This document shows, one piece after another, positions 10,346 through 36,260 of a stretch of 64,000 nucleotides of DNA; position 1 is the first letter of the stretch; every line of letters starts with the position of its first letter. Origin of the DNA: Deltaproteobacteria bacterium (GTDB lineage Bacteria > Desulfobacterota > Binatia > Binatales > Binataceae); assembly GCA_021801125.1 (NCBI GenBank), contig JAJYYI010000042.1, positions 2,975 through 66,974 of the forward strand. Reading direction: 5' to 3'. Both the position numbers and the translations under genes were made by a program. The notes under the pieces are model-generated. The model had not been told where the DNA came from. It saw only the letters and a list, made by a program, of their open reading frames with translations, and made no database searches.

Positions 10346-10861
10346 TCAGCGCGTGAGCGCGGCGATTACTTTGTCGACTGCAGCCTCGGCTTTGGCCTTC
10401 ATCTCCTCATTGGTCGCATCCTGGATTGGATGGGGGACGAAGATCCGTCGCACCTCCGGCAAGCCGAGGGCGTCGGCCTGCCTTTGCGCAGCTTCAACGA
10501 AAACGTCCGACGCCAAGAAGACCGCCGGCTTAGCGCTGGTTTCAAACCATATTGAGTCGTGCACACTGCACGTCGTGCACGACCCTCAATCGGCGAGGGC
10601 TTCGATTACGAAGTCGTTCTCCGCGGCGATAGTGCGCCTTAGCTCTTCCGGCGCGGGCTTGGTAAAAGTCGGCTTGCGGTACCGGTTGAATTTCACTTCC
10701 GGCAGCCGCTCGCTGAGCAACTCCGCGAGCCGATCCAGAAAGACGTCGCCGCGCGGTTTGCTGATATCGAGCAGAGCCACGGCGCCGTGAAGTTGTGGCG
10801 TCCGTGCGGCAAGAGTTCGTCTTACCGGCACACGCTCGTCGGTCGGATCGATTATCTCCAT
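10346..10861 (-). CDS. UGSC-family selenoprotein (171 aa, Sec92 encoded by in-frame TGA at 10586-10588)
   Basis: ORF-track pieces 10586..10882 and 10346..10564 share a frame: ...IEALAD-(TGA)-GSCTTCSVHDSIWFE...; SECIS hairpin directly after the UGA; GAGGAGG RBS before ATG 10861. Confidence 0.9.
10554..10585 (-). promoter_or_regulatory. Bacterial SECIS element
   Basis: Directly 3' of the UGA: GGGUCGUGCAC-GACGUGCAGU-GUGCACGACUC. This gives an 11-bp stem with one G-U, a bulged G, a short upper stem and an apical loop starting with G. Confidence 0.85.
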
Positions 10862-10868
10862 GGTTTGC

Positions 10869-12482
10869 TCACACCTCCTCAATCACGCGGCTTACGCTTC
10901 GCGCGGCGGCCCTGTCGTACCATCCGGCGAAAATCGCCGTGAATTTTCCGGCTTCGCCGCCGGCGACGACAATGTTGATTCCTTCCGCCTCGCGGAACTT
11001 CGGGATGCGGCGCGCCAGATCGGCGGTTGTCGGCTCCTTGATCCCTAGGACTCCGGGCGCCGTTCCGACCGCGCACTCGGAACTCGGCAGCAGTTCGGAA
11101 AGCGGCCGAGCCGTGATCTCCTGAATTCGTTCGCGCACCTGAGTTTTGGTCCATCCGTCGCGGGCAAATACGGCGGCGTGCTCCGGCGCGACCACGATCA
11201 GCACCTCCGGCTCGTAGTCATGCGCCTTGGGATGCCCGCAGGCCTCGAGGCCCAGACCCAGGCTTGCGGCGAGCGAGCTTGCAGTGCGCGACGTTTGATC
11301 CCAAACCTGGCGCGAGCCGGACTCGAGGGGAAAGACGGTAACCACGCTTTGCTCGGGCTTAAATCCGCGCTCCACGTGAAGCGGTTCCCACGGAGTCCGT
11401 TCTTCCCATTCCGCGAAGCAGGTCGTGTATTTGCCGGCAGAGCCTAGCGTGGTTTGCTCAACTTCGCCTGGGCGTGCTCCGCCGAGATTGCGCATCACGA
11501 GCTTCAACGCGCGCCCGATCGTGGCATTGGCGCGGTTCCCGTACCCGAGCACCATGCGTCCCATATTCATCACGATCCTATGGCGAATCGGGCCGTTGAC
11601 GACAATCACCGGTGTTGCACCCCAAGTCGTCGCCATCACGCCGTGGACGTTGAACTCGGGGGTGCATGCCGCCTCAAGGGCGGCGAGCACCACGGGCAGA
11701 TATTCGGGTTTGCACCCGGCCATCACAGCGTTCGCCGCAACCGTTTCGACGGTCGCCGGGGCCATGTTCGGCGGCACGATTGCGACCACTTCCTGCGCGT
11801 CGCGCCGCGTGCCCTTCAGCATCGCCACCACACGCTCCGGCGTTGGGGGTATCACCGGAAGGCCGTCAGTAAGCCCACGCTCGAACATGAATTCGAACGG
11901 GTCCTCGGCCGAGCCCAACTCGATTCGGCGCGCCCGCAAGCGCGAGCCTGACGCTTCCGCTTCAAGCCGCTGCGCCGCTTGGGGCTCGAGCGACTTCGAG
12001 CCGCATCCCGCGCGCCAGGCTGGATAGCTGTTCCAATCAAGCGCCGGTTCGGCAACGCCCGCAAGCGCGGCAAATTCCTTGAACGTGCTGCGCCACTCGT
12101 CACGCACGAAGCCTTCGAGGCGGCGCAATTCGCTCCCGTCCGCTCGCACCAGGACGATCGTCGGTACGATTTCAATCGCGAAGCCGTAGGAAACCTTCAA
12201 CGCCGAGTCGTCGAGCATCGGAACTTCGAGCCCGTGGCGCGCGACCAACTTAAGGTTGCCTTCGCGCTCCTGGCCGATCGCCCATATATCGGCCTTCGCA
12301 CGCATCGCACGAAAGGCCGCGTCGATCAACGGCACCGAAAGGTCGCACGTCGGGCAATCCTCCTTGACGAAGCAGAGCATCGCGGGACGCTCCCCTGGAA
12401 AGGTGCGTTGCGTTCCTGCGGCATCGGTCAAGATGAACGGAGGCAAATTGTTTGAACTTCGTTGTGTCCCCACGCCGAGCAT
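10869..12482 (-). CDS. Thioredoxin/AhpC-TSA (CPTC) domain fused to an uncharacterised 'TDGLPVIPPT' domain; partner of the UGSC selenoprotein
   Basis: CFVKEDCPTC and IVPT (cis-Pro) thioredoxin-fold marks; GCGSKS linker; TDGLPVIPPT, NAVMAGCKPEY and NRANATIGRA blocks; stop lies 7 nt before the selenoprotein ATG. Confidence 0.8.
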   Translation of the reverse strand: MLGVGTQRSSNNLPPFILTDAAGTQRTFPGERPAMLCFVKEDCPTCDLSVPLIDAAFRAMRAKADIWAIGQEREGNLKLVARHGLEVPMLDDSALKVSYGFAIEIVPTIVLVRADGSELRRLEGFVRDEWRSTFKEFAALAGVAEPALDWNSYPAWRAGCGSKSLEPQAAQRLEAEASGSRLRARRIELGSAEDPFEFMFERGLTDGLPVIPPTPERVVAMLKGTRRDAQEVVAIVPPNMAPATVETVAANAVMAGCKPEYLPVVLAALEAACTPEFNVHGVMATTWGATPVIVVNGPIRHRIVMNMGRMVLGYGNRANATIGRALKLVMRNLGGARPGEVEQTTLGSAGKYTTCFAEWEERTPWEPLHVERGFKPEQSVVTVFPLESGSRQVWDQTSRTASSLAASLGLGLEACGHPKAHDYEPEVLIVVAPEHAAVFARDGWTKTQVRERIQEITARPLSELLPSSECAVGTAPGVLGIKEPTTADLARRIPKFREAEGINIVVAGGEAGKFTAIFAGWYDRAAARSVSRVIEEV

Positions 12483-14421: not shown

Positions 14422-17018
14422 CTATCGCGAGCGGGTTTCTTGCTGCATCCCCGCGAAGTTCCAGCCAAACGCTCTCCAGCCCACGGCGATCAGTACGATC
14501 AGCGCAGCGTATCCCCAGTCGGCAGGCGAAATCGGCTGCATTTGCATCAGACTCGCCAAAGGGCCGAACGTCATGCATAGCGGAAGACTGGCGGCGACGC
14601 CTGCTACCACCGCCCAGAAACGGAGTCGTCGCGGCCACGGGGCGTGCCACCACGGTCGGCTGCCGGCGAGTTCCGCCCACGCTAGCATCAGGCTACCGCC
14701 GATGACCACCGCCATCGCGGCGCTTCTGGCATACGCGGCCCCGAGGGCCAGCCGATACGCGTAAAGCCCTAGCGCGCCCGCCATTACCAGCGCGCCGGTC
14801 AACGCCGCACGCACCGCGGGCCACAGCGGCAGCAGCGGCGCCGCTGGCGCTCGCGGAGGATCTCTCATCACGTCGCTCACCGGCGGCTCTCCTTCGAAGA
14901 CCAAGGCCGCGGTCGGATGGACCACCAGCTCGAGCCAGACGAGGTGAACCAGTTGCAGCAGAATCGGCATACCCAGCGCGGGCGCCAGCAGCGCCAGGCC
15001 AACAACGGTCGCCTTGAATCCGACGAGGAAGAAAAAGGCCCGCCGGATATTCTCAAACACCTGCCTGCCTTCGCGAATCGCCGCGACCAGTCCGCCCAGT
15101 TCGTCTCTGAGCAAGACCATCGCGGCCGCCCCGCGCGCGATTTCGGTTCCGCGCTTGCCCATGGTGATGCCGATGTTGGCGCGGCGAAGCGCGGGGGCGT
15201 CGTTGATCCCGTCGCCGGTCATCGCGACGATCTCGCCGGAGCGGACCAGGGTGTCGACGATGGCGTATTTTTGCTCGGGCCGCACGCGCGCAAAGATGCT
15301 CGAGTGGGCCACAAGATCGGTCAAGCGCTCCGGCGTGACGCCGTCGAGGTCGGGTCCATTTACTATCTTGTCGTCTTGATGGATGATTCCGGCGGCTTCG
15401 GCAACGGCGTGCGCCGTGATTGCATGGTCGCCGGTGACCAGCTTGAGATGCAAGCCTGCTTCTTGGCATTGCCTGACGGCTCCGACGACGCCTTTGCGCA
15501 ATGGGTCGCGAAATGCCAGCAGGCCGTAAAGTCTAAGTCCGCGTTCGTCATGCTCGCGATCTCCGTTGAATAGGCCGTTCTCCTCGGAGCGCGCAGAGAC
15601 ATCTGAGAGAGCGGCTCCGGAAGCCTGCTTTGGCGCGGCCGGCTCGCCTGCCCATCGTCCGGCCACGGCCAAAACGCGCATGCCTTTATCAGCCATCGCA
15701 GCGTGCGCGGCCTCGACCGCGGCGTGCTCGCTGATGTTGAGATGGCAGTGTTCCAAAATTCCCTCGAGCGAGCCTTTAGCGACGATTCGCGCTTGCGCGG
15801 AAAGCCCGTCGCCGCCGTCAGTCCGGGCGATCCAAACGTGCGACATGTGTTTTCCCGCGGCTTCGAAAGGGTAGTCGTAGGCGAGCTGCCAGCGAGCATG
15901 AAGAGCGGCGACGTCCACTCCGTACGCGCGGCAGTGAGACAGAATCGACTGTTCGATCGGATCTGCGGCGTCGAGCTCGCAAGCGAGCGCCGCGGCTTCC
16001 AGCAGGGTCTTGGCCGATGAGCCGATTCCAAGGGGTTCATGACTTGCCAGACCGTAGTGGCCCTCGGTCAACGTGCCGGTCTTGTCGAGGCATATTACGG
16101 TGGTTGATCCGAGCGCCTCGACGCTGGAGAGCCGGCGAGCGAGGACTCCATGGCTGCTAAGCCGCCAAGCGCCGAGGCTTAAGAAGAGCGCCATCACCAG
16201 CGGATATTCCTCGGGTGCGGCCGAGATCGCCAGCGTAACCGCATATAGGAATGACCGCTTGAGCGTGTTCCCGCGCAGCAGCATCAGCACGAACACTCCC
16301 ACTGCCACGGTCACGGCGAAGATGAGTAACTTGCGCGCCATGCGCGCGGTTTTGCGCTCCAGCGGAGTGCGCTCCTCTGGTGACTCCCTCATCAGGCGCG
16401 CGATGTCGCCGTAACGGGTCCGCTCGCCGGTGGCGGTGACCTCGAGGTAGCCGTGGCCGCTCAGCACGAGCGAGCCTGCGAACACGCTGTTTTCCTCGCC
16501 GGTTACCTCGTCGCTCGTCTTGTCGGTCGCGACCTTGTGCTGTGGTTCAGCCTCGCCGGTCAGATGCGATTCGTCCAGGGCGAGGTGGCGCACCATCGGA
16601 CAGTTCCGTCGGCATGCACCACGTCGCCCTCGCCGACCAACAAGATGTCCCCGGGCGCCACCTCCGCGGTCGGGATCTCGCGATGACGGCCCTCGCGGAC
16701 TACTCGCGCCCGCGGCGCGACGGCGCTTGCCAGCCGACGCAGCGCCTTGCGCGCCCGCAGCTCGAACAGCACGTCCACGATAAGCACCGGAACCGCGGCG
16801 ACGGTCAAGACGATTGCGTCGTGGCGGTTGCCCAATGCCGCGTAGAATGCTGCCGCGCCGAGCAGCATCAGCACCATCGGGTCGGCCAAGGCGCCAATCA
16901 CCTCTTTGACCCGCGCGGTCTTGGAGAGCCGTACAAAACGATTGGGTCCGAATCTCTTGAGCCGGGCCGCAGCTTCAGCCTCGCTGAGCCCTCGGAACCC
17001 TTCAGGGGTGAATTGCAT
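14422..17018 (-). pseudogene. Cation-translocating P-type ATPase split by a single-base frameshift near 16586
   Basis: N-part (GLSEAEA...GPN...PGDILLVGEGDVVHADG) and C-part (LALDESHLTGE, PEE, DKTGT, TGD, GDGINDAPAL) lie in different frames. Adding one base at GCC-A(A)C-CTC restores ADGTVRWCANLALDES. Confidence 0.8.
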
Positions 17019-23489: not shown

Positions 23490-23564
<75 letters not shown>

Positions 23565-35864: not shown

Positions 35865-36064
35865 AAGTCTCGCTTGTCAGTTCGGCTGCAATTCGCCGGT
35901 GCCGGATCGCTTCGAGGCAAAAAGAAGCAACCGCGAAGGCCGCGTGCGCCGGTACGGTCAGCCGCCGCCCCGCCCGCCGGGTATCGCCCTATTCACATTG
36001 ACAGGAACTGGCGTTGCGTGACTCCGCCGGCTCTCCTGCTCCCCGCAGACCAGCCCCGGAACGC

Positions 36065-36260
36065 CATTCGGCAGGTCTCCTGACTCTCGGATCAACCTAC
36101 TTGCGGCAACCTTCCCGCTGCGCACCCGTCTCAGGTAACCATAGCAGCAGTGGCAGAGGAGCGCTTTCGTCCCCGATCACAGTGGCGGGGGCCGTGTCGG
36201 ATTCGCACCGACTTCCCTATTAAGGCCTAGCCGCCGTCCGGCTTACTAACCGGTATATCG
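36065..36260 (-). ncRNA. Cobalamin (B12) riboswitch
   Basis: TAATAGGGAA-GTCGGTGCGAATCCGAC-ACGGCCCCCGCCACTGT...GCCACTG...GGGAAGG...AGTCAGGAGACCTGCC (B12 box), upstream of cbiD. Confidence 0.95.

Follow-up and report, generated by a model that had tools for sequence, protein, structure and literature searches.

A UGSC-family selenoprotein and its strictly linked partner domain as candidate parts of one enzyme

The window analyzed here, a 64,000-nt stretch of Deltaproteobacteria bacterium (GCA_021801125.1, contig JAJYYI010000042.1, positions 2,975-66,974 of the forward strand), carries on its minus strand a gene of the UGSC selenoprotein family, in which codon 92 is UGA and is probably read as selenocysteine (Sec). 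The gene belongs to this family, its UGA is conserved among homologs, a stem-loop of the selenocysteine insertion sequence (SECIS) type lies within the codons that follow, the host genome contains the Sec machinery, and the gene is strictly linked, in some lineages by fusion, to a domain of ~350 amino acids that is encoded here by the gene immediately upstream. Taken as a whole, these results are best explained (probability of approximately 0.85) by a genuine, SECIS-guided UGSC selenoprotein that forms part of a two-part enzyme with the upstream domain. As a gene, it appears from its sequence to be a genuine selenoprotein gene and an ordinary new member of an already catalogued family. The gene and its start region contain the following features:

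10346..10861, minus strand: UGSC-family selenoprotein gene, 171 codons and a stop, with Sec at codon 92 (from the translation, NF041046, PF24696, and the AlphaFold2 model)
10586..10588, minus strand: UGA codon read as Sec92, sharing one alignment column across all 30 loci and followed by invariant G93 and C95
10874..10880, minus strand: GAGGAGG, a Shine-Dalgarno-like sequence of the UGSC gene, 12 nt 5' of the ATG and within the last codons of the upstream gene (from reading of the sequence)

The reading frame extends from ATG (10861-10859) to a terminal TGA (10348-10346), and its sole internal in-frame TGA, at 10588-10586, gives the translation ...FVIEALAD-U-GSCTTCSVHD.... Standard open reading frame (ORF) calling breaks this frame into 10586..10882 and 10346..10564 (both on the minus strand), and because the second ORF starts at a GTG within the conserved CSVHD, the segment GSCTTCS is left without any ORF. 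The first-pass annotation of this region had considered the two short ORFs to be one frame interrupted only by TGA at 10586-10588; these coordinates were right, and the gene is on the minus strand. Its further proposal, a single protein of 171 amino acids, was borne out by two hidden Markov models: the read-through product matched NCBIfam NF041046 (UGSC family (seleno)protein) with 163.2 bits (cut-off of 125; model positions 4-147 of 147) and Pfam PF24696 with 160.4 bits (cut-off of 25; model positions 1-171 of 172), and both matches spanned the UGA. As in the family described by Zhang and Gladyshev (NF041046/PF24696), the match is full-length, the motif is U-G-S-C, the length is ~170 amino acids, and Sec forms far outnumber Cys forms; the window copy differs in an extra Cys three residues past Cys95 and in the thioredoxin-like domain on its partner, and in nothing essential.

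A database search with the UGSC product yielded 3,917 homologs. Among the best 120 of these, 108 covered 49-53% of the query, 3 covered 66-78%, and 9 were full length. We aligned 17 of the 120, namely 8 lacking the C-terminal half and the 9 full-length proteins: every one of the 8 short rows ended at ...ALAD (~94 amino acids), and the 9 long ones ran on into GSCT(S/T)C, with C (four), W (two), G (one), R (one), or a garbled residue (one) at the Sec position. Homologs ending at ALAD together with a conserved start downstream had been named beforehand as a pattern that would speak against read-through; the ALAD ends are places where gene callers cut the protein short at the UGA, and no conserved start was present in the downstream half. 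The G, W, R, and W at the Sec position of P0003, P0004, P0005, and P0008, respectively, are each one base from TGA, or correspond to the reading of TGA under translation tables 25 and 4, and may represent gene calls under another genetic code rather than real substitutions.

The family was also surveyed in 301 genomes from the same phylum as the host, 35 of which had a match. Exactly one in-frame TGA was present in 92 of the 103 family matches and none in the other 11, while all 25 matches above the cut-off had exactly one. When 30 homologous genomic loci were compared, the TGA fell at the same aligned column in each of them, and homologs therefore aligned across the stop with Sec or, in 4 of the 9 full-length database proteins, with Cys, as had been anticipated. 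G93, C95, and F121 were invariant in 34 sequences, and D91, D102, G133, and P145 were nearly invariant. U-G-x-C was found at 30 of 30 loci and U-G-S-C at 26 of 30, the window copy reading D-U-G-S-C. Cys98 was found at just 12 of the 30 loci, the others having W, G, Y, A, K, or P there; therefore, the family core is UxxC, and UxxCxxC is a trait of one subfamily. The site of Sec92, Cys95, and Cys98 that the first-pass annotation had put forward thus stood in its UxxC part, with the invariant Cys95, and not as a three-residue center of the family. The host genome has a single UGSC copy. Some other genomes (G291, G171, G201, G034, and G124) have between 9 and at least 12, often in tandem arrays of UGSC-partner fusions, and one 12-kb contig (L056 = G124:C3:1-12153) contains three UGSC and four partner domains.

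The TGA was free of variants in contigs of 4 of 4 public sequencing runs (two studies), a coverage that is not independent because these runs may include the source samples. A search of the public runs for RNA data that cover the operon listed none. Unitigs from the public runs broke exactly at the UGA/SECIS region (window 10552-10614), and in two runs their summed depth there rose about 5-10-fold (109-207 versus 18-22), suggesting that a short core sequence is common at the nucleotide level to other UGSC genes in the same communities.

The host genome (96% complete, 150 contigs) was found to carry the Sec machinery, as had been predicted, and its absence, which would have pointed to a relic, was not observed. 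A tRNA-Sec with anticodon TCA (68.8 bits), selB (381.9 bits; C30:36438-38330), and the adjoining selD (381.8 bits; C30:35331-36257) were all identified. selA was present in two pieces at contig ends (C42:2-733 and C149:12395-13009; 320.9 and 251 bits; model positions 1-241 and 240-444, respectively), and this split is an assembly break, not a broken gene. selD has one in-frame TGA of its own, suggesting that SelD is probably also a selenoprotein in this genome.

Two overlapping RNA structures were distinguished 3' of the UGA:

10558..10572, minus strand: family-conserved SECIS core, a 6-bp stem (10572-10567 with 10563-10558) closed by a GUG triloop at 10566-10564 (from the 30-locus alignment)
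10554..10585, minus strand: long hairpin of 32 nt with 11+2 pairs, one bulge, and a 5-nt loop, beginning at the first base 3' of the UGA (from folding)

The 54 nt around the TGA from the 30 loci were aligned without gaps, and each sequence was folded. An apical stem with a G-U-N triloop, distinct from the 32-nt hairpin, recurred across the folded loci. The corresponding inner 7-bp stem (columns 25-31 with 35-41) was paired in 86.7% of cells versus 72.8% in shuffles (reached by 0 of 500), pairing was at most 55.7% of cells when the 3' partner was slid, and two-sided changes occurred in 25 cells versus 7.8 expected (again reached by 0 of 500 shuffles). In L033, L037, and L039, and separately in L035, a synonymous change of Ser (TCG to TCA) was compensated by a synonymous change of His (CAC to CAT). 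A change of Cys to Trp (UGC to UGG) was offset by G to C at the third base of the opposite Val/Ile codon, including GUG to GUC with Val kept (L038, L047, and L050). The loop G is located 22 nt past the U of UGA, which we take to be the spacing of G23/U24 in the SECIS of Escherichia coli fdhF and in the bSECISearch model. Similar to the SelB-dependent element of the fdhF type, the stem-loop lies within the coding sequence just 3' of the UGA, and G-U opens its apical loop ~22 nt past the U; it differs from that element in having a triloop and in a sequence constrained by the codons for GSCT(S/T)CSVHD.

A 32-nt hairpin starting at the first base past the UGA had previously been noted and regarded as the bacterial SECIS. 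The hairpin is present at 10585-10554; however, its 13 pairs were formed in 67.7% of cells over the 30 loci versus 66.6% in shuffles (43 of 500 reached this value), and no covariation was detected in it across these loci. Its 71-nt context had a z value of -2.1, with 10 of 200 shuffles folding equally well. A stem-loop core conserved in the 30-locus alignment thus upheld the SECIS assignment, but in the inner stem of 6-7 bp rather than in the 32-nt hairpin, which did not exceed its controls. On sequence grounds, the SECIS core would be the inner stem with its triloop, inside the codons for GSCTTCSVHD, and the 32-nt hairpin would pair the same 3' arm in an alternative way that is available only to this clade. 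No SECIS family of Rfam matched in the window at the gathering threshold; Rfam matches in the window were limited to a cobalamin riboswitch aptamer (RF00174, 99.9 bits, 36053-36253, minus strand) and a tRNA (23493-23564, minus strand).

The gene upstream of the UGSC gene, hereafter the partner gene, has the following parts:

10869..12482, minus strand: partner gene, 537 codons and a stop at 10869-10871, encoding a thioredoxin-like N-terminus, a linker with Cys160, and a domain of ~350 amino acids (from the ORF)
12345..12356, minus strand: CPTC motif (Cys43-Cys46) of the thioredoxin-like domain, with C43, P44, T45, and C46 invariant in 17 of 17 aligned homologs
10872..11930, minus strand: partner domain proper (residues 185-537), which accompanies or is fused to UGSC elsewhere (AlphaFold2 predicted local distance difference test [pLDDT], 87.3; predicted template modeling score [pTM], 0.89)

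The two genes are closely coupled: the partner stop (10871-10869) lies 7 nt ahead of the UGSC start codon, with the Shine-Dalgarno-like sequence embedded in the last partner codons. A homolog of partner residues ~190-530 was adjacent or fused to UGSC at 30 of 30 loci, in three arrangements: as an upstream gene (as in the window), as a downstream gene, or as the C-terminal part of a fusion. In-frame fusions occurred at about 11 of the 30 loci, each as one frame of ~580-600 amino acids beginning with the UGSC domain; L029 and L030, with frames of ~580 amino acids, are examples. When the 301 genomes were searched with a partner-domain profile, 34 were positive, all of them also UGSC-positive, and none had the partner alone; the only UGSC-positive genome without a partner (G299) had a single weak UGSC match of 21 bits. 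The thioredoxin-like domain of the partner was present at 11 of the 12 loci with Cys98 versus 0 of the 18 loci without it.

No match for the partner gene was found in Pfam or NCBIfam at 1e-3. At loose thresholds, matches were confined to the N-terminus and all weak, to Thioredoxin_2 (E value of 0.007; 17.1 bits versus a cut-off of 27), Redoxin, and ResA (E value of 0.029); a Pfam scan at E values of up to 10 gave weak thioredoxin-like matches only, and hence no reductase-subunit family. Close relatives (67-89% identity) have ~530 amino acids and bear source names drawn only from an N-terminal AhpC/TSA or Redoxin domain, and precomputed matches to PF00578 or PF08534 were present in most of the 120 partner homologs listed. 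The N-terminus resembles the thioredoxin-fold proteins TlpA, ResA, and AhpC in its CPTC, which stands in the usual sequence context, and in these family matches of its homologs; it differs in scoring below the Pfam cut-off (17.1 versus 27) and in its fusion to a 350-amino acid domain without a family. A linker motif, R-x-G-C-G-S (residues 157-162; window ~11995-12015, minus strand), kept R157, G159, C160, G161, and S162 without exception in the 17 close homologs aligned. The database copy of the partner begins at Met35 (503 amino acids; start region at window 12380-12482, minus strand). Since P14, F16, L18, F28, and P29, within residues 14-34, are nearly invariant in homologs, the evidence favors the longer start, and a protein called from Met35 loses part of the thioredoxin-like domain. 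No hydrophobic leader was seen by eye in the N-terminal sequence, and the protein is presumably cytoplasmic.

The partner domain itself is widespread in databases: at least 7,999 of 8,000 scored candidates were homologs at an E value of 0.001. No Pfam family was shared among 24 of 24 partner-domain sequences. ESM Atlas matches of the partner all belonged to clusters of its own family, either unnamed or named after thioredoxin, and sequence searches of the Protein Data Bank (PDB) gave weak thioredoxin-domain matches only for the partner and none for the partner-domain profile. The best structural match by Foldseek, a class I fumarate hydratase fold (template modeling [TM] score of 0.24-0.29; root-mean-square deviation of 14-18 A), and that by VIA-align, a chorismate-mutase/YjgF-like fold for residues 200-341 (Z of 5.0 across 48,161 PDB representatives), were both rejected as fold assignments. 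The partner-domain model is a confident one without a clear structural relative. Conserved segments on its predicted surface were RGWTDGLPVVPPT, RANATIGRA, and PGKY.

The AlphaFold2 model of the UGSC protein (mean pLDDT of 95.3, pTM of 0.89) consisted of five beta-alpha units in series. Sec92 is placed at the end of strand 3, between the strand of residues 84-90 and the helix of residues 93-108, and Cys95 within the opening turn of helix 3, positions that in this model are typical of a redox-active X-x-x-C pair. The best matches by Foldseek were FMN reductases (AzoR) and flavodoxins (TM score of 0.41-0.52), VIA-align gave Z values of 9-11 to many unrelated three-layer alpha/beta families, and a PDB sequence search found no match; the predicted fold is that of a generic five-stranded, flavodoxin/Rossmann-like alpha/beta domain. 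No thioredoxin-fold chain was among the matches listed by either structural program, a listing that does not exclude such chains, and the thioredoxin-like fold suggested in 2008 (in the sections of PMC2398784 available) accordingly found no support here.

UGSC-containing proteins were reported in 2007 as selenoproteins without a known function (accessible part of PMC1976440), and Hyphomonas neptunium is named there among the organisms that have the family. In the 2008 study of Global Ocean Sampling (GOS) data, as far as its available text goes, UGSC was among the most abundant selenoprotein families (255 Sec versus 21 Cys forms); the study also noted its fusion with a domain named 'Unknown_1' (PMC2398784). 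'Unknown_1' is likely the partner domain of the present study. Reviews from 2022 and 2026 still list UGSC without a function (PMC9312934, PMC13188914, each in its accessible portion). Within the accessible text of these four sources, which span 2007-2026, no reaction is assigned to UGSC and no obligate partner is described, and the earlier description of UGSC as a computationally defined family without an assigned reaction agrees with the available parts of PMC2398784 and PMC13188914.

Protein B of the glycine, sarcosine, and betaine reductases (GrdB/F/H) and PrdB have UxxCxxC from the Sec onward and receive electrons from thioredoxin (PMC6778437 and PMC13188914, in the parts accessible). These proteins (PF07355) offer the best functional analogy for UGSC, with a small Sec-bearing part and a larger substrate-binding subunit, and the window copy, U92-G-S-C95-T-T-C98, has the same UxxCxxC, as do only 12 of 30 UGSC loci. 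On the other hand, neither GrdA nor GrdC is among the window neighbors, and the partner has no match to the pyruvoyl-proprotein family (GrdE/PrdA). Homology between UGSC and GrdB/PrdB was rejected: the UGSC protein had no match to GRDB (PF07355) at E values of up to 1, and its hhalign probability against the only GRDB-like ORF of the host genome was 0.2%. This ORF (C8:25664-25987; L055:1453-1938, minus strand) encodes 161 amino acids without Sec, and its match to the GRDB model is weak (23.2 bits versus a cut-off of 22) and confined to the C-terminal third.

A possible course of the reaction may be outlined. SelB and tRNA-Sec would decode UGA92 as Sec, guided by the SECIS stem-loop. UGSC would constitute the small subunit, or a fused domain in other lineages, and the ~350-amino acid partner domain would be the large part, to which the substrate would bind. 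Sec92 would then attack or reduce the substrate and form a selenenylsulfide with Cys95, and in this lineage the CPTC thioredoxin-like domain fused to the partner would re-reduce it, perhaps through the lineage-specific Cys98. We infer physical contact between the two parts, redox cycling, and a flow of electrons from the CPTC domain. More broadly, UGSC with the ~350-amino acid domain could represent an undescribed, widespread family of thioredoxin-driven selenoenzymes with a radiation of paralogs in some genomes, a tentative proposal that we rate at somewhat below an even chance. Certain genomes have at least a dozen paralogs, which suggests many substrates. Near two paralog arrays elsewhere, we found genes for MmgE/PrpD, a family III CoA-transferase, ADP-forming acyl-CoA ligases, and a MaoC-like dehydratase, as well as rhodanese, MauE/DoxX, and a weak match to a TctC-type receptor just under the Pfam cut-off. 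These neighbors hint faintly at carboxylic-acid or acyl-CoA chemistry, and in its fold the partner domain faintly echoes class I fumarase, PrpD/IRG1, and serine dehydratase. Such weak hints would point to a substrate class of small carboxylic acids or acyl-CoA compounds.

Several observations weigh against a SECIS-guided, two-part enzyme. Two other covariation measures of the inner stem did not reach significance (48 of 500 and 38 of 500 shuffles), and the shuffle and slid controls favor this stem because it was derived from the same sequences and lies inside a coding sequence. The hairpin was in another register in L043, in L045 and L046, in L051 and L052, and in L054, and L053 had no stable hairpin. 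The folding energy 3' of the UGA ranked among the top three windows of its own gene at only 4 of 30 loci and first at 1 of 30, and for the window copy, the 45 nt 3' of the UGA (-21.4 kcal/mol) were 5th of 157 sliding windows in the gene. No invariant Cys and no recognizable catalytic motif were found across the wider partner family, and the label of catalytic subunit is accordingly an assumption. The association of Cys98 with the thioredoxin-like domain may reflect a single event because the loci come from related lineages, and we regarded it as the character of one subfamily. The neighbors in the window (pyrF, an HhH-GPD DNA glycosylase, a P-type ATPase, a HAD hydrolase, a lytic transglycosylase, and Maf) are unrelated housekeeping genes and give no clue to the substrate. 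As a separate matter, the ORF of the P-type ATPase (14422-16596, minus strand; 724 amino acids) matches the E1-E2 ATPase model from model position 50 at residue 7, which may mean that the gene starts farther 5' or that it is shortened at its N-terminus.

UGSC might instead be a stand-alone thiol/selenol oxidoreductase, a general protectant similar to thioredoxin or peroxiredoxin, with the neighbor being co-regulated or one of many clients. The grouping of UGSC with redox selenoproteins and the guess of a thioredoxin-like fold in the available part of PMC2398784 point in this direction, UxxC at a helix N-terminus is a generic redox motif, and close homologs of the partner have been named peroxiredoxin or TlpA by their sources. 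However, these names derive only from the N-terminal domain of the partner, the order of strands and helices in the UGSC model appears not to be that of thioredoxin (no thioredoxin-fold chain being among the matches listed), and fusions at ~11 of 30 loci, together with 34 genomes having both proteins and none having the partner alone, are unlike a general-purpose reductant. We therefore regard this explanation as improbable. A U-x-x-C-x-x-C triad that binds a metal, a metalloid, or a cluster, as a chaperone, sensor, or detoxifying site, is a distinctly remoter prospect. Sec92, Cys95, and Cys98 do lie at one helix N-terminus in this subfamily, and homologous clusters elsewhere contain rhodanese and a MauE/DoxX protein; however, Cys98 occurs at just 12 of the 30 loci, which excludes a three-ligand site as the function of the family. 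In the window, no gene for metal handling is linked to UGSC, since pyrF and the glycosylase gene lie between it and the P-type ATPase (14422-16596).

That the UGA is a true stop, leaving a nonsense-split relic or two small proteins with the hairpin as a terminator or attenuator, is hardly credible. Standard ORF calling does yield two ORFs, most database entries are truncations of ~94 amino acids, and a consensus scan flags the long hairpin with AATATGGTTT as terminator-like. On the other hand, conservation continues past the UGA (invariant G93, C95, and F121; nearly invariant D102, G133, and P145), the TGA occupies one column at 30 of 30 loci, some homologs have Cys in its place, the genome contains the full Sec machinery, and a separate start codon for the GSCTTCS segment is lacking. 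Sites resembling terminators occur in the region at chance frequency (3 found versus 3.1 expected), and the T-run is poor; the hairpin was rejected as a terminator on the basis of this frequency.

As a gene call, the finding carries little weight because curated models already name the UGSC family and Sec-aware pipelines would annotate the gene. Both UGSC and its partner are nevertheless routinely mis-annotated since truncations of ~94 amino acids dominate the entries of the former and the latter is named from its thioredoxin tag only. The more interesting point extends beyond 10346..10861 to the strict linkage with a thioredoxin-tagged domain that has no structural or sequence relatives. UGSC is among the most abundant environmental selenoproteins and still lacks a function after its description in 2007-2008; its strict pairing with one partner domain, together with the natural fusions and the fusion to thioredoxin, now suggests a concrete two-protein unit, through which the function of the family would become testable.

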